A DNA stretch of 64,000 nucleotides from Candidatus Limnocylindrales bacterium (lineage in GTDB: Bacteria > Moduliflexota > Moduliflexia > Moduliflexales > JAUQPW01): assembly GCA_035559535.1 (NCBI GenBank), contig DATMBG010000007.1, forward strand, positions 1-64,000, read 5' to 3'. Of this stretch, positions 45,868 to 57,321 are shown piece by piece. Under the pieces are notes generated by a model. That model did no database searches. It saw only the letters and a program-made list of their open reading frames with translations, and had not been told where the DNA came from. Made by a program: the position numbers and the translations under genes. The first letter of the stretch is position 1, and the number at the start of each line of letters is the position of its first letter.

Positions 45868-46482
45868 CTATTTGATTCTCTCAATAATTAACCTCTTAAG
45901 TACTACATCTTCTACTGGTTTATCTCCGGGTCCTTTTTTTACATTTCCAATCTCGTTAACTACCTCTTGCCCTTTAATGACCTGACCAAAAATGGTATGC
46001 CGACCGTTGAGCCAAGGGGTTTCCTTATGGGTAATAAAAAATTGGGATCCATTGGTGTTAGGCCCGGCATTGGCCATGGCCAATCTACCCGGCCTATCAA
46101 AGGCCAGCTCTTTAACGATTTCATCTTTAAATCGATAACCAGGTCCCCCTCTACCGGTTCCTGTGGGGTCTCCTCCCTGAATCATAAAGTCAGGAATAAC
46201 CCGATGAAAGATAGTTCCATCATAAAACGGTCGTTTGACCTTTTCACCTGTTTTAAGGTCTACCCATTCTTTGGTTCCCTCCGCTAAGCCAATAAAATTA
46301 GCAACCGTTTCAGGAGCTTCCTTTTCAAAAAGCTGACAAATGATCGTCCCATGATTCGTCATAAAAACCGCATAAGTTCCAGGTTTTAAACCTTCTAAGC
46401 TATAATCTTGACCTTGTATATTCACTACAGTACCTCCCCATAAAGTTAGAGTCATACAAACAATCAACCAAAAATTTTGCAT
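45868..46482 (-). CDS. Cyclophilin-type peptidyl-prolyl isomerase (exported)
   Basis: [51 protein letters not shown]. Confidence 0.96.
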
Positions 46483-46577
46483 TTTACGGAAAATAAAATG
46501 AACAATTAAAATCGTTGTTACTTATCCACCTCCGCTATGAATGATCAACGACTTTAATCGTCATTATCGGTGGTATC

Positions 46578-47012
46578 TTAGACAATCAACACCGGACAAG
46601 GTGCCTGGCGGGTTACCTTCTCCACAGTGCTGCCTAAAAAACGATGCTCTGGTTTTTCAATGCTATGGGCCCCAAGAACAATAAGATCTACGGCCTTTTC
46701 ACGGGCTATCCGAATAATTTCCCCAGAAGGGCTTCCGGTAACAATTACGGCCTCATAGTTACTAAAATTTTTAAGCTTTTCTCTACAAAGCTTTTCGAGT
46801 TGGGCTTTTCCTTCTTCTTCCAATTCCTTCTGAAGTTGGGCCAGGGGAGTTTTAGTAACATAAAACCCTGTGTACCCCTTCAGGTCGTGAACAACATGAA
46901 GGATATAAAGCTTAGCAGGGAATTTCTCGGCAAAAACAAGGGCATAATCCAGGGCCTGCTCGGAGTTTTTAGAAAAATCTGTTGCCAATAAAATTTTTTC
47001 AATCGATTTCAT
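46578..47012 (-). CDS. Universal stress protein
   Basis: KILLATDFS, DLIVLGAH, FLGSTVEKVTRQAPCPVLIV. Confidence 0.95.
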   Translation of the reverse strand: MKSIEKILLATDFSKNSEQALDYALVFAEKFPAKLYILHVVHDLKGYTGFYVTKTPLAQLQKELEEEGKAQLEKLCREKLKNFSNYEAVIVTGSPSGEIIRIAREKAVDLIVLGAHSIEKPEHRFLGSTVEKVTRQAPCPVLIV

Positions 47013-47020
47013 ACTTTTGT

Positions 47021-47072
47021 AAAACGGAAAACGGAAAACGTAATGGGGGCACGTTCTACGCCTTACGTTTTA
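47021..47072. repeat. Heptamer inverted element (AAAACGG / CGTTTTA)
   Basis: aaaacggaaaacggaaaacgtaa...cgttctacgccttacgttttac between the PQQ gene stop and the usp start. Confidence 0.65.
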
Positions 47073-48884
47073 CTTTTCTGAGAGGGCAAAAACTAAAATA
47101 TCATCTCCTAAGGGATATCCAAAAATAGAGTTTCCTCCTGCCGCAACTGCGATATACTGAGTTCCATCCACTTCATAAGAGATGGGCGGTGCATTTACGC
47201 CGGCACCGGCTTGAAATCGCCAAAGGATCTCTCCGGTTTTGGCATCAAAAGCATCAAAGTAGCCGTTCCCCTCACCGGTAAATACTAGACCCCCTGCGGT
47301 AGCCAGAGCACCCCCTATCATGGGCAGTTCCATCTTTTTTTGCCATAGAATCTTTCCGGTAGAAGTATCAATGGCTGTGAAAGTCCCCCAGGTTTCTTCC
47401 TGGGTAGACTTGATAAAGGTATAACTTTGCCAGGGTTTATCGGGTTCTGGAGTCAAAGTCCGGGAAACATATAAGGCAGGTCGGTGGAGACCTGAAATAT
47501 AAACAGCGCCTGTTTGGGGGCTATAAGCTACGGGAGACCAGTTGGACCCCCCTCCTCCGGCCGGGGCAATACGGACTCCTTCTGGGGTAGGTCTGGCAAA
47601 CAGATTTTCTTGAGGTACAAAGGGCTCTGATCGGAGGAGAAGCTTTCCGGTTTGTCGATCATGGACATAGAACCAGCCTGTTTTGCTGGCCTGCCCGACG
47701 GCTTTGATTTTTTGTCCGTTGATTATTACGTCAAACAATACCGGAGGACTGGCTACATCGTAAGCCCAGCGATCATGGGGGACTTGTTGATAGTACCATT
47801 TGAGTTGCCCGGTCTCTGCATCCAAAGCCACGAGACTTACGGTATAGAGATTATCTCCCGGGCGGGTGGAGTCGTCCATTTGAGGGGATGGGTTTCCGGT
47901 TCCAAAATAAATTAAGTTTAACTCCGGGTCTGGAACGGGCGTCATCCACAGGGAACCACCTCCCAATTTCCAGGTATTTGGATACTTTTTAAAGGCCTCT
48001 TTTTCCGCTTCGATATTCCGATGGAGGTCTTCCCCATCGGGAGTATGGGTACGCCATTCCCCTTCCCAGCCTTTCTCAGGAACGGTATACCATCTCCAGA
48101 TCTCTTTTCCGGTTTGAGCATCATAAGCTACTAGAAAACCCCGTAATCCTTTACCCCCACCGGAGAGGCCTACTACCGACAGAACCTGCTTCCCACCTTC
48201 CTTAAATTCCAGGTGAAGACCATACCCGGCTCCTGTGGTTCCGACAATAACTTTCCCTTTATAAACGAGGGGAGCCATGTTGGCACTATACCCTGAAGCC
48301 CCGGTAACGGTCCCCCCTTGCAATTCTTTGACACCTGTCAGGGGCTCCATCGACTCGACCTTCCCGGCTTCTGGATCTTCGGCAATCTCTACATCCCATA
48401 TCAACCTGCCGGTTTTTTGATCCAAAGCAACCAGTCGGGCATCCAGGGTTGCCATGTAGACTTTTCCATACGCTACCGCAGCACCTCGATTAGCCGGCCC
48501 ACAGCAAAACTTCTCGGTTCGAAGCTTGTGCTCATAACGCCAGAGTTGTTTGCCGGTCCTGGCATCCAAAGCCACCACATGATTGTAAGGAGTCGTCACA
48601 TACATAATTCCATCTACAACCAGAGGATTCGTCTGAAAAGAGCCTATTTTTCCCGTTTGATAAATCCATTTGAGGACTAAATTCTGAACATTATCTGTCC
48701 GGATCTGATCCAGAGGACTATACCGCTGATTGGTATAATCGTGACCATACAGAAGCCAGTTCGCTTTGTCCTGTTGCGCATTAAGTAGATGGGCATCGGT
48801 TACTTCTTCGGCCTTCAAACCTTTGGACAGAAATAAACTTATCCCTATAATCAGGATCATGATTCCATAGCTCCATCTCTGCAT
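47070..48884 (-). CDS. PQQ-dependent alcohol/methanol dehydrogenase-family protein, atypical active site
   Basis: Signal peptide, NWLLYG.DY.NQRYSPL.QI, vicinal CC (FCCGPANRG), GTGNPSP, GDNLYT, ATAGGLVF.G, G.QYIAVAAGG. No fused cytochrome c domain. Confidence 0.92.
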   Translation of the reverse strand: MQRWSYGIMILIIGISLFLSKGLKAEEVTDAHLLNAQQDKANWLLYGHDYTNQRYSPLDQIRTDNVQNLVLKWIYQTGKIGSFQTNPLVVDGIMYVTTPYNHVVALDARTGKQLWRYEHKLRTEKFCCGPANRGAAVAYGKVYMATLDARLVALDQKTGRLIWDVEIAEDPEAGKVESMEPLTGVKELQGGTVTGASGYSANMAPLVYKGKVIVGTTGAGYGLHLEFKEGGKQVLSVVGLSGGGKGLRGFLVAYDAQTGKEIWRWYTVPEKGWEGEWRTHTPDGEDLHRNIEAEKEAFKKYPNTWKLGGGSLWMTPVPDPELNLIYFGTGNPSPQMDDSTRPGDNLYTVSLVALDAETGQLKWYYQQVPHDRWAYDVASPPVLFDVIINGQKIKAVGQASKTGWFYVHDRQTGKLLLRSEPFVPQENLFARPTPEGVRIAPAGGGGSNWSPVAYSPQTGAVYISGLHRPALYVSRTLTPEPDKPWQSYTFIKSTQEETWGTFTAIDTSTGKILWQKKMELPMIGGALATAGGLVFTGEGNGYFDAFDAKTGEILWRFQAGAGVNAPPISYEVDGTQYIAVAAGGNSIFGYPLGDDILVFALSEK

Positions 48885-49057
48885 CCTTAACCTCCTATTC
48901 TTTGGAATTCTAAATTCCCCGTAGACTTTGAAAAACGTTTCCTGGATTCCCCTTCCCTCTTCCTGGAGGAGAGAGTTAGAGTATCATCTTTAGCCCTCCT
49001 TACAATCCCATAGCCACATTTTCCACCTCCTCGTGGTGAGGAATCCCAATATTTCCC

Positions 49058-49951
49058 TTATCCTTTCTTCAATCGGGTTCCTGCAAGTTTTTCCACGACC
49101 GTAAGCACGCCAGAAAAATCTTTTTCTCCTAATCCTGCAACTTTGGCGACCCCAAAGAGTTCTCTTACTAAGGTCGTAACCGGTAGTGCAAGCCCCAACT
49201 CACCGGCAGCAGTCGAAATGAGCCAGAGATCCTTATACATATGCTTGAGGGGAAAATGGGTATCGAAGTTTCTTGCCAGTAAGGAAGGTCCCTTTGCCTC
49301 CATTGTCAAGGTTCGATCTCCACCCTGGAGGATAACTTTGATCAATTCTTGAAGATTTAGTCCGGCTTTTTGGCCAAACAACAGGGCTTCGGAAACAGCC
49401 TGCATAACGACCCCACTGATCAAGTTATTACAGAGCTTTGTGTAAAGTCCCATGCCCTGAGGACCCATGTAAAAAACCTGTCGCCCCAACACCTGGAAAA
49501 TTCCATGGCACCGCTCATAAACAACCTTCTCCCCCCCTACTACAATAGTTAAAGTTGCGTTTACGGCCGCCCGCCGGCTTCCCAGGACCGGAGCATCTAG
49601 CATCTCACACCCGTAAGTTTTTATCACCTGTGCAAGCTGCCTGACTGCAGAAGGTAGAATTGTACTCATGACGATGATAACAGAACCGGATTGAACTCCA
49701 GCCAACAGGCCGTCTTTCCCCATCAGGATTTCTTCTACTTCAGGGGTGTCTGAAACCATGAGGATGGTAACCTGAGAGCGACTTCCAACCTCCCTGGGAG
49801 ATTCGGCTACAACGGCTCCCAATTCTTTAAGTTCAGCAGTTTTGAAGGCGGACCGATTAAAAACCGTTAAAGTATATCCGGCTTTAAGGAGATTTTTAGC
49901 CATGGGTTTTCCCATGGTTCCAAGGCCTATAAAGCCGATTTTTTCTTTCAT
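49058..49951 (-). CDS. NAD(P)-dependent beta-hydroxyacid dehydrogenase (3-hydroxyisobutyrate/tartronate semialdehyde reductase family)
   Basis: IGFIGLGTMG.PMA.NL, LDAPVLG, KLCNN, F.LKHM.KDL. Confidence 0.92.
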   Translation of the reverse strand: MKEKIGFIGLGTMGKPMAKNLLKAGYTLTVFNRSAFKTAELKELGAVVAESPREVGSRSQVTILMVSDTPEVEEILMGKDGLLAGVQSGSVIIVMSTILPSAVRQLAQVIKTYGCEMLDAPVLGSRRAAVNATLTIVVGGEKVVYERCHGIFQVLGRQVFYMGPQGMGLYTKLCNNLISGVVMQAVSEALLFGQKAGLNLQELIKVILQGGDRTLTMEAKGPSLLARNFDTHFPLKHMYKDLWLISTAAGELGLALPVTTLVRELFGVAKVAGLGEKDFSGVLTVVEKLAGTRLKKG

Positions 49952-50065
49952 ACTTATCCGGTATTCTCCCTCCGGGACAACCAACAGCAGGTTATGATAA
50001 GTAAGAAAATTAACATAGGGGCCTGGATAAGTCAATAAAACTTTTTGAAAGAAAATTTTAAAAAA

Positions 50066-51149: not shown

Positions 51150-51440
51150 CTCATCCCCTTCTCCTGAAGTTTCAGGAGAGGGGGAGCGAAGGGCATGGGC
51201 GCCAGCATAAGGGTAAAAAGCCCCGCCAGGGGTGAACCATCTATAACCCTGGCGCAAGTCGGGGGGTTCAGAAATTCGGAATTTTTTCAAGCCCCCTAAT
51301 CCTGTCCTGTTAAACAGGTTGCCCCGCCGGGGCTAACCTTCTTATCCTGGTGCGTAGGGAGTGAGGGAGTTAGGCGAGAAAAGAACCTACCTGCCCCCTC
51401 CCCCCCGTGGACGGGGGGAAGGGGGCAGGGTGAGGCGGAT
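51150..51440. repeat. Cluster of palindromic elements between convergent genes
   Basis: ccccttctcctgaagtttcaggagagggg, agccccgccagggg...gccccgccggggct (related to 61272-61338) and ccccctcccccc..ggggggaagggg. Confidence 0.7.
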
Positions 51441-51445
51441 GGGAG

Positions 51446-52432
51446 TTAAGCTGTAAGGAAAGAAGATTTCCTGATAAAAAGGAGTAAGAGCGCTAAACCC
51501 AGGGGAATCTGGAAGAACTCCTTTTCATGGACCACAGATTTCTCTCCCACAAGCTCGACATGCTTCAAAAGTCCCTGGAGTTCCTTACCTGAAATAACCC
51601 GGAGATATTTTCCATCGGTTTTAGCAGCCAGCTCCCTTAACGGAGATTCATTTAAACGGGTTAAAATTAATTCATTATTGATTCGGTACCAATCCTCAAA
51701 TTTTCCATCCTTTCCGTAGACAGGAATTTTAGAACCTTTCAGATTTCCCAAACCTATGGCAATGACTTTAATCTTTTTTGAAGAAAGCTTTTCCTGGATT
51801 GGTAAAAGATCTGGGAGGGCTACATCCCCTCCGTCGGAAAAAAGAAGAATTAATTTGCTTCGATCTTCTTCTTTGAAGAGATTATAGGCTTCTGAAAGGG
51901 CCAACAGGATGTTTGATCCTCCCCCCGGGGCCGATTCAATTTTTACCCAGTTTTGCAAAACAAATTTAAGAGCCACGAGATCATCGGTCAGATTAGACTG
52001 AACAAAACCCTCTCGCGCGAAGGTCACCAATCCCACCCGGTTACCTACCAGATCAGGGAAAAGTCCCATAAGCATATCCTTCGCTTTTTGTAATCGAGAG
52101 ACCTCATCTCCATAATCCTCTGCCGCCATGCTTCGCGATACATCCAGGACAGCAACTACATCCAGGGACCCTTCCCGGAGTTTAATCGAACCTCCCGGCC
52201 AGACAGGTCGGGCCAGGGTGATAATCAAGGCGATTACAGCTCCCATCAACAAACCCCCTTGAATCCACTGGTCCCAATTTTGCGAAAGGCGGGAGGTTTG
52301 TCTAATGAGGTTCTCCTGACCAAAGGTTCTTAATAAAGAGCGCCTCCGATAATAACCTATTCCTAGAACTCCTATCAGAATCAGGAGGAGTCCAAACCCC
52401 CAGAAAGCTTGCGGATAAAGAAATTGTATCAT
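51446..52432 (-). CDS. vWA domain protein (MxaL/BatB-like)
   Basis: LARP, MIDAS DVSRSM, LFSDGG, N- and C-terminal TMs. Probable start ATG 52432; the upstream extension is heptamer repeat. Confidence 0.85.
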   Translation of the reverse strand: MIQFLYPQAFWGFGLLLILIGVLGIGYYRRRSLLRTFGQENLIRQTSRLSQNWDQWIQGGLLMGAVIALIITLARPVWPGGSIKLREGSLDVVAVLDVSRSMAAEDYGDEVSRLQKAKDMLMGLFPDLVGNRVGLVTFAREGFVQSNLTDDLVALKFVLQNWVKIESAPGGGSNILLALSEAYNLFKEEDRSKLILLFSDGGDVALPDLLPIQEKLSSKKIKVIAIGLGNLKGSKIPVYGKDGKFEDWYRINNELILTRLNESPLRELAAKTDGKYLRVISGKELQGLLKHVELVGEKSVVHEKEFFQIPLGLALLLLFIRKSSFLTA

Positions 52433-52596
52433 TCGTCCATTGTCCGTTGTCTGTTGGCTGTTCCTCACCCCTTTGCTTTCCTTACCTCCTCTTCCCTTTC
52501 CCCAACTGGGGAGAAGGGGAACAAGGAGGTGAGGAAAGGTAAGGTAGCTCTTCCAGCGGAATATAAACCCTGGATAACAGACAAGGGACCGTTAAG

Positions 52597-53169
52597 TTAA
52601 ATTCCCCTTGGATTAGGACCGGTTCCCCAGCCTTTTCCTTTAGACGGGTCCTGGGCACTGTTAGCTTCTTCATTAGGTTCCTGCTGCATAGAAGCCTCTT
52701 GATTTCCCTCTCCAAAGGCTTTGGGATTAAAAACGTATAATCGTTCCAGATTATATTTTGTCTCCCAATCAGAAGGATCCAGTCGCAAAGCAGCCTGATA
52801 CATGGCAGCCGCCTCTTTGGGTTGTTCCATGACTGTTAAAATGTTACCCAAATTGTAATAGGCTTTAGCTTTCAAATCATCGGAGTTGCTTTCCTGGATA
52901 ACCTGGCGAAAATAATCTGAAGCACGTTTGAGGTTATCAGCTTTATAAGCTCGAACTCCCAGGTTGTAATGAAGGATATCCTTCGAGGCAAATAAGTTCT
53001 TTTCAGCCTTTTCATAATCTTGATTATCAAAACGATTCTCCTGGGTAGCCTGATTGCCTTTTTTAATTAGATCCAGATAGCCGAATTTGTAGTAAATCCC
53101 AGAAATAAACAATACCCACCCCCCAACGAATAGGATAATTTGTAAAGCTCGTTTTTTTCCACCTGACAT
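52597..53169 (-). CDS. TPR protein (MxaK/BatC-like)
   Basis: AYYNLGN, Y.AALRLDP.DWETKYNLE, N-terminal TM. Confidence 0.8.
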   Translation of the reverse strand: MSGGKKRALQIILFVGGWVLFISGIYYKFGYLDLIKKGNQATQENRFDNQDYEKAEKNLFASKDILHYNLGVRAYKADNLKRASDYFRQVIQESNSDDLKAKAYYNLGNILTVMEQPKEAAAMYQAALRLDPSDWETKYNLERLYVFNPKAFGEGNQEASMQQEPNEEANSAQDPSKGKGWGTGPNPRGI

Positions 53170-53253
53170 AGAATATCTCTATGATGACCGATGGGGGATG
53201 AGAAGCAAAGGAAGTCAAGGACTCATCCCCCATAGCTTATCACTTAATTAAGA

Positions 53254-54174
53254 TTAAGGAAACTCCATCATAAGGGTATTTCCAAGGATCTCAGCCAAGA
53301 GGAGTAAAATGAAACCCACCAGGGTAAACACGGCATAAAACTCAACAGATTTAATCTCCGTTTTTTCCACCGTGATAGCAGATTGTTCTAACCGATTGAT
53401 TTCATCAAAACCCTGACTGAACTCGGCTTCCTTTTGAATATTGATAAATTTTCCACCAACGTTTTTGACAATATCCAACATATCCCGTGCGTTCGTTAAT
53501 TGAATTCCCATCAAGTAAAAACGAATCCCTTGGTGGATAAGGTTTTGAACGATCTCTGCTTTAGCTTGAGGAGGAATGGGAGCATCTCCATCGGATAAGA
53601 AAATAAGGACTTTACTTTGAGATTGACCCAACTGTTCAAAGTGTTGAAAAGCCGTTTTGAAGGGTTTTTCAAAATTAGTTCCACCGTGGAAACGGTTCCC
53701 GATGTCTTGGAGTTTTTCATCGATGATATGGAGATCTGTCGTCAAAGGCCAACTCCCATAAGCCTCATCTCCAAAGACAATCAAAGCAATGCGACTTCCT
53801 TCCTGTTTTTTCACAAACTCCCGGGCTGCTTCCCGTGCAATATCGATCTTTCTCTTTCGGCTTTCTCCATCTAAACCCATTTCCATACTATAGGAGAGAT
53901 CCATAACCAAAATGATATCTCGGGCTTCCAGTTGTTTAAACTCTTCGTACTGGTGCTTTTGCGGTCGAGCCAGGGCTACAAGTAAGAAAGCGATGGCAAG
54001 GAGGAATAAAACCGTCGGCAGCTTTACCCAAAAGTTAGATCCCAGCGTTTTTTTTAACAGATTTAAGTTAGAATACCCTATAAAAGTTTTTCGCTTTACC
54101 AGAAAGAGTAAGGGAATTAGAAGAGCAACCAAAAGCAGGTAAGGGTCTGCCAATGTTAAATGAGTTAAGGTCAT
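53254..54174 (-). CDS. vWA domain protein (MxaC/BatA-like)
   Basis: ALARP, MIDAS DLSYSM, GGT, FLSDG, I..LE before the C-terminal TM. Confidence 0.85.
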   Translation of the reverse strand: MTLTHLTLADPYLLLVALLIPLLFLVKRKTFIGYSNLNLLKKTLGSNFWVKLPTVLFLLAIAFLLVALARPQKHQYEEFKQLEARDIILVMDLSYSMEMGLDGESRKRKIDIAREAAREFVKKQEGSRIALIVFGDEAYGSWPLTTDLHIIDEKLQDIGNRFHGGTNFEKPFKTAFQHFEQLGQSQSKVLIFLSDGDAPIPPQAKAEIVQNLIHQGIRFYLMGIQLTNARDMLDIVKNVGGKFINIQKEAEFSQGFDEINRLEQSAITVEKTEIKSVEFYAVFTLVGFILLLLAEILGNTLMMEFP

Positions 54175-54177
54175 AAT

Positions 54178-55398
54178 TTATCTGGTGGACACGGATGGCA
54201 GTGGCGACTTAGGTTTTTTCCTTGAACGAATAAAGGTTGAAATCGCAACTACCTTTCTTTCTTTCCGATTTTCCACATCTTTCTGCTCCGATGCTTTATC
54301 CTGAGTTTGTGGAGGAACCCCGAGATTCCTGGTTTTAGAAACAGTGGATATCTGTTTAATTAATTCTTTCACTTGTTTAATGGTCTCTTCTTGCTCTCGC
54401 TTCCCCGGGATATATCCTTCATAAAGTACTGCATGACATTTTCCAAGAACCTCTAAAATCTCGCTTTGATAAGGTTTTCCTTGTAGAGCTTCCTTTAACT
54501 GGAGAAAGGTTTTTGTAATGACGGGAATATCATACACTTCTCCCAGGTAGGTTCGGAAAGCTAAACTTGTTTTAGACAAAAGATCCTCCACCCTTCCGCC
54601 ATTAATTACATATTGTTCCCAGGCTTCGGTAATCGTTTGAAGCGTTCTTTCTTCCAGGGAAAGTTTTTTCTGCAACCGAACTTTTCCTGCTCGTATCGCA
54701 TACCATTTCCAGGTCCAGGTCGAGAGAGTACCGACCCATAAAAGAGCTCCCAGCAGAATACCCCCCCAGGCTAGAGGAGAATGTTCTTCACTCATCACCC
54801 CCTTAATACCCTTCATGTGACTAAAATAGGTGGCCGTACGAGAGAAGGAAATGGAGTAGGGCATAGAGATAACGTTCTTATATTGATATTCCCCTGATAG
54901 AGCATTCACGCCATCTGGGGTTGCATAGAGGATATCTAAAGGGGGAAACTCCAGGGTATCCACGGCCAGTATCGGCTTAAAAGTCTGTAAGTTAAAATTA
55001 ATTCGATAGATTTTCGTATCCCGGACTTCCTCGGTATGAACTTCTAGATTACGAACCTCAAAGGATCCATGGACTTCTCCCTTATGGGGTAAATTTACCA
55101 AATCCAAAACTACATCCTTCTTAGCCTCGATAACCAACGTTAGGGGTATCTCGTCTCCAATATGATAACCAAAATTCCGTTTCATTTGAAAATAAGGATA
55201 AATAGGGAACTTTGAATCTTCAGCTTTAGATTCTGATTCCTTAGGAAGAACTGTATCCGAAGGATCTGAGGGACCTAACTGATTTTGTGTAAGCTTATGA
55301 GGGAAACCCAGGGCCAAAGGAAATAGAATCTGAGAGGACGGTAATAACGTCGTTACCCCTAAAGATAGAAGTAAAATACCTAAAGTAGTCTTTCTCAT
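54178..55398 (-). CDS. MxaA/BatD-like single-pass membrane protein
   Basis: Signal peptide, RNFGYHIGD motif (recalls the MxaA R.FGY..GD pattern), TM, helical tail, and gene position. Confidence 0.55.
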   Translation of the reverse strand: MRKTTLGILLLSLGVTTLLPSSQILFPLALGFPHKLTQNQLGPSDPSDTVLPKESESKAEDSKFPIYPYFQMKRNFGYHIGDEIPLTLVIEAKKDVVLDLVNLPHKGEVHGSFEVRNLEVHTEEVRDTKIYRINFNLQTFKPILAVDTLEFPPLDILYATPDGVNALSGEYQYKNVISMPYSISFSRTATYFSHMKGIKGVMSEEHSPLAWGGILLGALLWVGTLSTWTWKWYAIRAGKVRLQKKLSLEERTLQTITEAWEQYVINGGRVEDLLSKTSLAFRTYLGEVYDIPVITKTFLQLKEALQGKPYQSEILEVLGKCHAVLYEGYIPGKREQEETIKQVKELIKQISTVSKTRNLGVPPQTQDKASEQKDVENRKERKVVAISTFIRSRKKPKSPLPSVSTR

Positions 55399-55412
55399 GA
55401 TCTTCTTCTCCG

Positions 55413-56291
55413 TTATGATCTTTTCCTCCGCCTGGAGAGAAACAACTTGGTTATTTCTAACAGATAATCCGTTTTAGGATCGATCCAAAGGTAATCCAAG
55501 TTTAACTGTTTAAAAAGTGAATTTAAATCTTCTTCTCGTTTCTTGGCTTCTGCTTGAAAAGTTGCCCTATTTTTCTTTGTGAACCATAGCATTCTTTCCA
55601 TACCCGTTTCTAAATCCCTCAACCGAAGTCCTCCCCGATACTGTGGAAGTTCACGTTCACGGGGGTCATGGAGGACCAGAGGAATTACATCGTGGCGTGA
55701 ACCCATAACTTTTAAAGCCTTTTTTATTTCGGCCAACTCTTCCAGGAAATCAGACAACCAGAATACCAAGGCACGTTTTGCAGGCAAGCTTTCAAATACA
55801 CTGGAAACCTTTCCTTGGGTACCATGTTGAGTTTTAAAAGATAGAACATGTTGTGGAATCAAAAAATTGTAAGCTTTTTGGCGCTGAGGTTTTAAATGAA
55901 TTTCTATTTTCACCGTATAGCCGATGAGTCCGATGGGGTCACCTACACGCCAGGCAGAATAAGCCAAAGTCGCCGCAATTTCAGCCGCTAATCTTCGCTT
56001 GGAAACTCTTTCTGATCCAAACTCCATCGACTTACTCAGGTCAACCACTAAGATTAGATAGAGTTCACGTTCCTCGATATACGTGTTTTTTAAAATGTGT
56101 TGACCTCCGATTCGAGCCGTTGCTGCCCAGTTAATCCATCGAGGATTCTCACCCAAATCATATCGGCTGATCTTATCAAACTCCAAACCCCCTCCTTTGT
56201 ACACACTGAACCAGGAACCCGGACATACTTGCGTAGTATACCAGTTGATATAATAATCGATTTTCGAGACTTTTTTCAGAATTTCTTCCAT
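55413..56291 (-). CDS. DUF58 domain protein (MxaS-like)
   Basis: G.G.EF....Y..G...R.INW.ATAR, EERE, VDLSKSM.FG, LSDF, DPRE..LP. Confidence 0.9.
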   Translation of the reverse strand: MEEILKKVSKIDYYINWYTTQVCPGSWFSVYKGGGLEFDKISRYDLGENPRWINWAATARIGGQHILKNTYIEERELYLILVVDLSKSMEFGSERVSKRRLAAEIAATLAYSAWRVGDPIGLIGYTVKIEIHLKPQRQKAYNFLIPQHVLSFKTQHGTQGKVSSVFESLPAKRALVFWLSDFLEELAEIKKALKVMGSRHDVIPLVLHDPRERELPQYRGGLRLRDLETGMERMLWFTKKNRATFQAEAKKREEDLNSLFKQLNLDYLWIDPKTDYLLEITKLFLSRRRKRS

Positions 56292-56343
56292 AGAACTTAC
56301 CTCTCGTAGGGAGTTTTCATAAGAGAGATGGCTTCCCTGATCC

Positions 56344-57321
56344 TTAGGGGACAGGAATCTTACTTAAAACATGATCCAGGATCTCATCTGGTGTAACTCC
56401 TTCCATTTCAGCCGAGTAGGTTAAGATCATACGATGACGGAGCACATCCTTGGCAGTACGCTGAACATCTTCTGGATAGACAAATTTCCGTCCTTCCAGA
56501 AAAGCTTGTACGCGAGCCACATCTCGCAAACCCAGGATTCCTCTGGGTGAGACCCCAATTCTTATTTTCCCTTCTATTTTGTCCAGCTTATATTCCACGG
56601 GATTTCGAGTCGCACGACACAAATCCACCATATATCGATGGGCATATTCTTCGACCTTTACCTCTGCTTTGATCTTCTCCCGTAAGCGGACAACCTCCTC
56701 CGGGGAGAAGACCTGTTGAATCTCTGCTAAACGATCCCGGCGGTCTAAAAGGGTATTTTCCAACATGTGGATCTCATCTTCTCTAGAAGGATAGTTCACG
56801 AGAAGCTTTAAAAGGAACCTATCCAATTGAGCCTCCGGTAAAGGATAGGTACCCTCGTGCTCGATAGGATTTTGAGTTGCCAGGACCATAAAGGGATCTG
56901 GAAGTTGAAAAGTCTCTTTCCCCATAATGGTCACCTGACGTTCCTGCATGGCCTGGAGAAGAGCTGCCTGAGTTTTGGCAGCCGCTCGATTAATCTCATC
57001 CACTAAAATCAGATTAGCCGATATGATGGGGCCTTTTTCGACTTCAAACTTGCCGTCTGTATAGATATAGGTACCCACAATATCACTGGGCATCATGTCC
57101 GGAACCATCTGGATACGCTGAAACGCACCCCCAATAGTTTTTCCCAAAGTGGCTACCAGTAAGGTTTTAGCCAGTCCGGGTACTCCTTCTAATAGCACAT
57201 GCCCATCGGCCAGAAGTGCGGTTAAAACTTTCCAGATGAGGGAAGTCTGCCCAATGATTATTTTCTCGATTTCATTAACAACCTGATGAACCTTTTCCAA
57301 TTCATCTTTCATAAACGCCAT
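56344..57321 (-). CDS. moxR: MoxR family AAA+ ATPase
   Basis: HVLLEGVPGLAKT, DEINRA..KTQAALLQAMQE, ATQNPIEHEGTYPLPEAQLDRF, SPRG. Confidence 0.95.
   Translation of the reverse strand: MAFMKDELEKVHQVVNEIEKIIIGQTSLIWKVLTALLADGHVLLEGVPGLAKTLLVATLGKTIGGAFQRIQMVPDMMPSDIVGTYIYTDGKFEVEKGPIISANLILVDEINRAAAKTQAALLQAMQERQVTIMGKETFQLPDPFMVLATQNPIEHEGTYPLPEAQLDRFLLKLLVNYPSREDEIHMLENTLLDRRDRLAEIQQVFSPEEVVRLREKIKAEVKVEEYAHRYMVDLCRATRNPVEYKLDKIEGKIRIGVSPRGILGLRDVARVQAFLEGRKFVYPEDVQRTAKDVLRHRMILTYSAEMEGVTPDEILDHVLSKIPVP

Follow-up and report, generated by a model that had tools for sequence, protein, structure and literature searches.

We analysed a 64,000-nucleotide (nt) stretch of bacterial DNA (positions 1 to 64,000 of contig DATMBG010000007.1, assembly GCA_035559535.1, Candidatus Limnocylindrales bacterium), here called the window, and within it a gene for a homologue of the pyrroloquinoline quinone (PQQ)-dependent alcohol dehydrogenases (ADHs) whose active site departs from the canonical one. 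The gene, recognized from its open reading frame (ORF) and profile matches, lies on the minus strand at 47070..48884 and encodes 604 amino acids (aa) (protein P0001; paralogue C7 of its genome); it is a W-A-Y-D variant of what we term the W-G-Y-D family, after the residues at the catalytic-base loop. A Shine-Dalgarno sequence, AGGAGG, was read directly at 48891..48896 on the minus strand, 6 nt to the 5' side of the ATG. Residues 1-25 (48810..48884, minus strand, ending GLKA/EE) form a probable Sec signal peptide, as judged from the translation alone, and a helix was modelled at residues 2-19.

Fold and active-site residues

The 604-aa protein matched PF01011 at 1.5e-92 and scored 505.2 bits against TIGR03075 (PQQ-dependent dehydrogenase, methanol/ethanol family), above that family's cut-off of 480.05. 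Its closest solved relatives were PedH, ExaA, the quinohemoprotein ADHs and XoxF, with values of 1e-88 to 1e-81. An AlphaFold2 model, built from an 89-sequence alignment, had a mean predicted local distance difference test (pLDDT) value of 92.5, and the top 30 Foldseek matches to this model were all quinoprotein dehydrogenases, with quinoprotein ADHs as the best of them (template modelling score ~0.75-0.80, E ~1e-49 to 1e-46). A search of the ESM Atlas with the same protein returned generic names only. We conclude that 47070..48884 encodes a periplasm-directed protein of the 8-bladed quinoprotein fold.

Much of the canonical site is present. The vicinal pair Cys127-Cys128 (48501..48506; minus strand, as for all residues given here), the PQQ-stacking disulfide of ADH-type quinoproteins, is found in KFCCGPANRG along with Arg133 of the NRG motif, and Asn331, a metal ligand, is kept in GTGNPSP (47892..47894; read directly and aligned). 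In the PHDRWAYD loop, the alignments place W373-A374-Y375-D376 at 47757..47768: the Asp that serves as catalytic base in the canonical W-D sequence is replaced by Ala374 (codon GCT, 47765-47763), and the lanthanide-type Asp376 is kept. In the HMMER alignment with PedH (6zcv), W-D-F-D faces W-A-Y-D. Of the D-x-D pair that marks the XoxF/PedH/ExaF type, the second Asp is thus present alone, the first being Ala. The original prediction for this gene, made from the sequence alone, had named the Cys-Cys pair, the GTGNP Asn, the PHDRW-A-Y-D loop and the GCT codon, and each was borne out by the translation, the DNA and the PedH alignment.

The second departure is at the metal-ligand Glu. The aligned position is occupied by Gly220 (codon GGG, 48225..48227), SGAEY having become TGAGY, and the segment as a whole reads GTTGAGYG-LHLEFKEGGKQVLSVVGLSGGGK-GLRG. 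The G-x-E-x-G-x-R-G motif has accordingly no Glu and is split by a family-specific insertion of 24 aa, residues 222-245 (48150..48221), which opens with a conserved G-L-H224. An alternative hidden Markov model register puts Gly244 at the Glu position, so that the residue is Gly in both registers. Canonical sister sequences in the same alignment show SGAEY-GIRG and W-D-[Y/L]-D, against TGAGY-[24 residues]-GLRG and W-A-Y-D in the window protein; the earlier claim that the base Asp and the Glu ligand are both missing, with the lanthanide-type Asp and the Asn alone remaining, is upheld by this comparison. The insertion before GLRG had also been seen correctly. A second family-specific insertion, of 26 aa (residues 172-197, 48294..48371), had been overlooked; by alignment it precedes the GYS motif and it holds Glu177, a residue conserved in the family. 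In the AlphaFold2 model the 24-aa insertion is a beta-hairpin, with strands assigned by DSSP at 224-229 and 232-240. Model confidence is lower in both insertions (pLDDT 68-81; 68-79 for residues 172-197).

By these alignments the predicted PQQ pocket is otherwise kept, in the Cys-Cys disulfide, Arg133, the Trp/Tyr floor, Asn331, Lys401 and Asp376. The Glu/Asp machinery with which an ordinary MxaF, XoxF or ExaA enzyme works is unavailable to a protein of this sequence.

Distribution and ancestry of the W-G-Y-D family

We observed the same departures in a large set of homologues. Among the 120 best (59-93% identity to the window protein), the Cys-Cys...RG and GxGNxxP sequences were present in all 120, and the residue after Trp was Gly in 114, Ala in 4, Asp in 1 and Ser in 1. 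The best 80 loci in species-representative genomes gave 79 with a readable ORF, 78 of which read W-G-Y-D and one W-N-Y-D; the vicinal Cys-Cys was present in 76 of the 79. An independent sample of 80 metagenome loci, 69 of them readable, gave 64 with G-Y-D, 3 with G-L-D and one each with N-Y-D and D-Y-D. Hosts in the genome sample included metagenome-assembled genomes (MAGs) of Gammaproteobacteria, as well as Thiotrichaceae, Neptuniibacter, Methylophilaceae/Methylotenera/OM43, Hyphomicrobium zavarzinii, Methylopila, Ancylobacter and Binatia.

A phylogeny had been proposed together with the original prediction. We built one with FastTree from 155 sequences over 528 columns, rooted at the midpoint, after dropping those 50%-identity representatives that fell outside 520-800 aa. 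The window protein falls in the clade of W-G-Y-D proteins, a canonical sister clade adjoining: all insertion-bearing sequences form a single clade of 38 leaves (support 1.0), and a canonical paralogue from the same genome, C22, sits in the neighbouring group. The base Asp is missing throughout the 38-leaf clade, with one derived paralogue as the sole exception. In one divergent branch of the family (P0123, P0129, P0131, P0139 and P0140) Cys-Cys is gone as well, along with further residues of the pocket.

Conservation was compared between 197 family and 43 canonical sequences. Gly220 was found in 100% of the family, and position 374 was Gly in 96% of it versus Asp in 100% of the canonical set. 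Within or beside the insertions, Glu177 (97%), Tyr221 (95%) and His224 (98%) are nearly invariant. The complete set of positions conserved specifically in the family comprises Gln84, Glu177, Gly195, Gly198, Gly220, Tyr221, Gly222, Leu223, His224, Val237, Gly239, Met336, Leu351, Gln367, Gly374 and Pro484; those conserved in both sets alike are C127, C128, R133, N331, D371, W373, D376 and W449. The window protein belongs to the family by its place in the clade, by Gly at the Glu site, by a small residue other than Asp after the Trp and by both insertions, and it has every other family-conserved residue, Ala374 for Gly374 being the sole exception.

The rewiring seen in W-A-Y-D is therefore a trait of a large, monophyletic and widespread family, and not a quirk of a single gene. 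The family branched from lanthanide-type (E / D-x-D) ADHs coupled to a cupredoxin or cytochrome, and three changes go together in it: Glu to Gly, base Asp to Gly (Ala here), and the gain of two loops of about 25 residues beside the active-site strand. Ala itself is a derived, one-base variant found in 4 of the 120 best matches. Ala (the window protein and P0002-P0004), Asp (paralogue C37) and Ser (P0012) are confined to the window protein's own subclade, and the codon for each is one base from GGY; as read from the tree, Gly at position 374 is ancestral within the clade and the Ala of the window protein is derived.

Related genomes and the fate of the window copy

The source genome (G000; 5.6 Mb, 58 contigs, 95.8% complete) has an RpoB whose nearest named relatives, at 75-77% identity, are those of Candidatus Moduliflexus and Candidatus Vecturithrix. 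We found the family in 2 of 21 related genomes, namely G000 and G006, a genome of the same genus, and did not find it in the 7 same-order genomes searched. This distribution suggests that the family was acquired in this lineage. We rejected composition as an argument for recent horizontal transfer, the GC fraction of the paralogues (0.49) being not telling against that of the genome (0.457).

G000 has three family paralogues, of 78-79% identity: C7, the window gene; C25, which reads W-G-Y-D; and C37, which reads W-D-Y-D with Gly at the Glu site. G006 has the window gene's orthologue only as a pseudogene (G006:C107:5934-7291, locus L104, syntenic to window positions 46454-49001), which has lost ~1.19 kb internally (the DNA of window positions 47170-48358 is missing) and carries a frameshift near codon 100. 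The two other paralogues are intact there, with 99% and 76% identity to the C37 query, the former being the orthologue of C37 and the latter that of C25. With its orthologue reduced to a pseudogene in the sister species, the window copy, as one of three paralogues, looks dispensable. The cyclophilin gene at 45868-46482 of the window is also absent from the syntenic site in G006.

These observations bear on the possibility that C7 is simply a recent and redundant duplicate on which selection has relaxed and which is heading toward loss, its Ala having no functional meaning. The presence of three such similar paralogues, the decay of the syntenic copy in G006 while the two others are intact, and the single base change (GGY to GCT) that gives Ala at a site otherwise 96% Gly are all in keeping with this. 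However, the ORF is intact over 604 codons and is preceded by a good Shine-Dalgarno sequence, all other family-conserved residues are present, and intact W-A-Y-D relatives occur in other samples (P0002-P0004; 93%, 85% and 83% identity), which implies that the Ala lineage has persisted for a while. We consider this explanation improbable.

Neighbouring genes and electron acceptors

On the minus strand, 57 bp to the 3' side of the stop codon, lies a universal stress protein gene that is possibly co-transcribed with the window gene (46578..47012; PF00582, 2.4e-32). A gene for an NAD(P) oxidoreductase resembling 3-hydroxyisobutyrate dehydrogenase (49058..50035, minus strand; PF03446, PF14833) lies 173 bp upstream, and the other flanking genes are those for cyclophilin and a NicO-like transporter. 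Within about 5 kb of the window gene we found no gene for cytochrome c, an xoxJ-like protein or PQQ synthesis (pqq), in agreement with the earlier statement that no partner cytochrome, mxaJ/xoxJ or pqq gene is adjacent; nor was there a cupredoxin gene within 5 kb, so that a dedicated acceptor is not encoded there. Two further features of the window may be recorded. At ~51170-51360 lies one copy of a repeat, 90-190 bp long and dispersed through the genome, which is perhaps a MITE, a REP element or a small RNA and has 88 other blastn matches in G000 and ~40 in G006. Genes for a MoxR AAA+ ATPase, a DUF58 protein, an ORF of unknown nature, and VWA, TPR and VWA/BatA proteins at 51446-57321 (minus strand) form a MoxR-VWA operon of the Bat/aerotolerance-like kind.

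The source genome permits a direct comparison of family members with canonical quinoproteins, since its 13 quinoprotein homologues comprise 10 with the canonical N/D/D residues and the three family members. Partner genes were detected by motif only, and the partner of C22 was confirmed as sulfocyanin-like. A CxxCH-containing or cupredoxin-like gene was found no more than 3 genes downstream of 10 of the 10 canonical genes versus 0 of the 3 family paralogues, a split for which Fisher's exact test gives 1/286 (calculated by hand). All ten canonical quinoproteins are of the lanthanide D-x-D type, each with a cytochrome c or cupredoxin gene of its own. At its start, C25 (region G000:C25:61247-64803; L092:6262-9818) shares 4 nt with the stop of a hydantoinase B/oxoprolinase gene, and a hydantoinase A gene lies further upstream; a cytoplasmic enzyme would be an odd partner for a protein that is exported.

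We extended the survey to the family at large by clustering the neighbours of 83 genome loci and inspecting 69 metagenome loci. In these ~150 loci no family-wide neighbour was found, only lineage-specific synteny (the Pfam scan covered 140 of the 250 neighbour-cluster representatives), and no redox partner was conserved across them. A verified cytochrome gene lay within 3 genes at 1 of 82 family loci (L057, where cytochrome c is fused to a solute-binding protein). Recurrent neighbours were a DUF3108-like protein (15 loci), an SBF transporter (12 gammaproteobacterial MAG loci), an adjacent ExbB-like gene (8/83 genome loci, in two lineages), a HisKA_3 kinase within three genes (6/83 genome loci, as HisKA_3/LuxR two-component genes) and other TonB-dependent transporters (4 loci). 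In the marine loci of OM43 type (L078-L080, L114, L122, L127, L130 and L166), a gene for a 278-aa radical-SAM protein ends 1-3 nt from the start of the family gene, and genes for an ActP-like symporter and a DUF485 protein follow within 0.3-2.4 kb. Membrane flavo/FeS proteins resembling NosR adjoin family genes at two proteobacterial loci (L035:5769-7964 and L017:6171-9441), both of which also carry PqqU-like transporters; L017 has an ApbE gene in addition. Directly upstream of one family gene (L040:7212-7784) is a gene for a 191-aa protein with four EF-hands, whose best NCBIfam match, lanmodulin, was obtained at 40.8 bits, under the cut-off.

The absence of acceptor genes has to be set against conservation when one asks whether the family consists of re-tooled dehydrogenases, that is, PQQ-dependent oxidoreductases in which the base and a metal ligand come from Glu177, Tyr221 and His224, or from the substrate itself (for example an acid-bearing one), and from which electrons pass to a shared periplasmic acceptor encoded elsewhere. 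What speaks for a re-tooled site is the strict conservation of Glu177, Tyr221, His224, Gly220 and Gly374 and of the disulfide and Asp376; Asn331 is likewise kept. Purifying selection on the family is clear across classes, at 50-93% identity, PQQ synthesis accompanies the family in 5 of the 5 genomes checked, and the NosR-like redox proteins of L017 and L035 and the fused cytochrome c of L057 would be suitable company for an oxidoreductase. XoxF, moreover, was thought inactive until its true metal was found. On the other side, both carboxylates that have been proposed as the base in canonical mechanisms are gone, the acceptor gene present beside every canonical paralogue of G000 is missing beside all three family paralogues and is not replaced by any partner conserved over the family, the subclade of the window protein tolerates G, A, S and D at position 374, and only a decayed orthologue of the window gene is left in the sister species. 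We regard re-tooled catalysis as plausible, if on balance doubtful.

Supply of PQQ

G000 gave no match to pqqC or pqqB and no PqqE match above cut-off. The pqqC search can be relied upon because it detected the gene in all five of the other family-bearing genomes that served as positive control; in the 5/5 genomes checked the family co-occurs with canonical quinoproteins as well as with pqqC. With no detectable PQQ synthesis, G000 is predicted to be a PQQ auxotroph.

The only PqqU homologue in G000 lies directly upstream of C37, which is 78% identical to the window protein. The apparent operon (G000:C37:20918-29100; L091:4058-12240) runs from a radical SAM/SPASM gene (TIGR04053 family) through a small ORF and the PqqU-type TonB-dependent transporter to the W-D-Y-D family paralogue, followed by ExbB, ExbD and TonB. 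The transporter matched the PQQ transporter structures 9c4o and 6v81 at ~1e-120 (9c4o: 7e-121). It has Phe at the position of Tyr99, Arg at those of Arg365 and Arg536 and probably at that of Arg304, in line with the F/R/R form of the signature that PMC12124388 gives for PqqU (Y/F/W99, R304, R365). At the Lys274 position it has Glu, and a Lys274-to-Glu variant of PqqU is predicted in the same source possibly to co-transport metal. PqqU-like transporters also adjoin family genes at L017, L035 and L174, bringing such adjacency to 4 of ~150 family loci, in four lineages.

PQQ is probably still bound by the window protein, to judge from the conserved pocket and from the link between the family and PqqU. 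The contrary explanation would be that the family is a cofactor-free propeller which no longer binds PQQ and has taken up an unrelated function, like the 'empty quinoproteins' of Acidobacteria (TIGR04528) or the PQQ-less tetrathionate hydrolase. TIGR04528 was indeed the second-best NCBIfam match (395.6 bits), tetrathionate hydrolase appeared among weak sequence matches in the Protein Data Bank (PDB; ~2e-06), and the divergent branch of the family has dispensed with Cys-Cys and other pocket residues. Yet the TIGR04528 score is far under the cut-off of 650 while TIGR03075 is above its own, the PQQ-pocket residues are as conserved in the family as in canonical enzymes, and genuine PqqU-type PQQ importers adjoin family genes in four lineages. 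Loss of the cofactor is, in our judgement, very unlikely.

Possible functions of the family

Taken together, these observations lead us tentatively to a non-turnover role for the window protein in handling or sensing PQQ, with or without metal, a proposition to which we would give not far short of an even chance. The protein would still bind PQQ, with metal probably held loosely on Asn331 and Asp376; canonical metal-assisted, Asp-based oxidation of alcohol would be impossible, and no dedicated electron acceptor would be at hand. It is the loss of canonical oxidation together with the lack of such an acceptor that leads us to favour a role without turnover. In one form of this role the protein would bind, buffer or pass on PQQ (with or without lanthanide or calcium) in the periplasm, and in another it would report the presence of PQQ to a regulator. 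Compared with a re-tooled dehydrogenase, handling or sensing is slightly favoured because no acceptor gene is found, both carboxylates are lost, a paralogue lies in a PQQ-import operon, and there is precedent in an inactivated XoxF1, described below. The original prediction had offered a non-catalytic carrier or sensor among its options. It is a live option because the 78%-identical paralogue sits in the PQQ-import operon; what did not stand is the notion that the rewiring is special to this protein, since it is ancestral in the W-G-Y-D family.

Several points weigh against a role without turnover. In methanol dehydrogenase the strained vicinal disulfide is tied to electron transfer, and in the family both the disulfide and the metal-binding Asp376 are strictly conserved, though a PQQ carrier would not obviously need either. 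Positions 374 and 220 are kept as Gly and not as any residue, and the 95-98% conservation of Glu177, Tyr221 and His224 is the pattern expected if catalytic groups had moved to new loops. Adjacency to PqqU is rare, and an ordinary PQQ-dependent enzyme would be expected to show it too. At most loci the synteny is only lineage-specific and involves unrelated genes. Finally, methylotrophs that produce PQQ, among them some with streamlined genomes of OM43 type, have retained the family, a retention that fits an enzyme as well as a chaperone.

A more specific version of the handling role, which we think rather unlikely as it stands, is that the W-G-Y-D proteins serve in the periplasm as receptors or chaperones for PQQ, possibly for a PQQ-lanthanide complex, and evolved from a dehydrogenase by deletion of the two metal-locking carboxylates. 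Such a protein would take the cofactor from PqqU-type transporters, or recapture PQQ that has leaked, and would either pass it to apo-quinoproteins or let two-component systems know that it is available; the PqqU variant with Glu for Lys274 beside C37 would then be the upstream partner of the family.

Searches of full-text literature turned up no account of a quinoprotein family that reads W-G-Y-D or lacks the base, although the clade may already bear a 'PQQ-ADH type' number. Surveys of PQQ/lanthanide enzymes class sequences by a D-x-D or D-x-A motif, and according to one ocean survey 26.5% of PQQ dehydrogenase homologues had neither the lanthanide nor the calcium motif, which is left unexplained there (PMC11996626). 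The W-G-Y-D family is one large, coherent group of this 'neither motif' kind, for which both the ancestry and the set of changes that occur together are defined, and may possibly overlap with the unassigned sequences of that survey. If its members are handlers or sensors, they would be a missing piece between the import of PQQ or lanthanide and the maturation of quinoproteins; if they are enzymes, they would represent an alternative construction of the PQQ active site. In both cases, it is unsafe to count such genes as ADHs in metagenomes. Model methylotrophs (Methylotenera, Hyphomicrobium, Methylopila) and marine bacteria of OM43 type have members of the family, and a knockout is feasible there.

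Comparison with known systems

The window protein shares with the type I quinoprotein ADHs PedH/ExaA (6zcv, 6zcw, 1flg) and XoxF (6dam) the 8-bladed propeller, at 30-33% identity, as well as Cys-Cys, the NRG Arg, the GTGNP Asn and the lanthanide-type second Asp. It differs from them in that Gly stands in for the Glu ligand (Glu199 of PedH, numbered by chain index) and Ala for the first Asp of D-x-D, in having extra loops of 26 and 24 residues, and in the lack of a cytochrome or xoxJ-like neighbour.

The closest canonical group is the sister clade (C22, G000:C22:270301-272073; P0124 and P0132), which is 63% identical to the window protein outside the insertions. The two have in common the PHDxW..D context, Lys401 and Cys-Cys. 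In contrast to the window protein, the sister clade has SGAEY-GIRG, W-D-L/Y-D and no insertions, and a sulfocyanin-like cupredoxin is encoded adjacent to its genes or fused to them. In P0124 and P0132 the fused C-terminal cupredoxin, with a C...H....M copper motif (alignment columns ~740-919), corresponds to the separate sulfocyanin-like gene that adjoins C22.

The 'acido-empty-quinoprotein group A' of TIGR04528 resembles the window protein as a quinoprotein homologue with a non-canonical site, but the window protein keeps the PQQ-pocket residues. We rejected membership in that group by score and by pocket conservation, and a tetrathionate-hydrolase-like reading likewise.

Precedents for quinoproteins or PQQ-binding proteins acting without turnover come from two other systems. 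In Methylorubrum extorquens the inactive XoxF1 variant D320A still regulates, and the account in 10.1101/2020.02.25.964783 indicates that the structure of the quinoprotein, and not its activity, is needed for signalling. Unlike the window protein, XoxF1 is a real enzyme with a full E/N/D/D site; the loss in the window protein is natural, affects a different Asp from that of D320A and affects the Glu in addition; a regulatory role of the window gene would be by analogy. PqqT, a periplasmic PQQ-binding protein (Ho & Cotruvo 2019, as cited in PMC12124388), has the same task as is proposed here, namely to hold PQQ in the periplasm. It is described as a periplasmic binding protein, a fold family other than the propeller, and by that description is set apart from the W-G-Y-D family.

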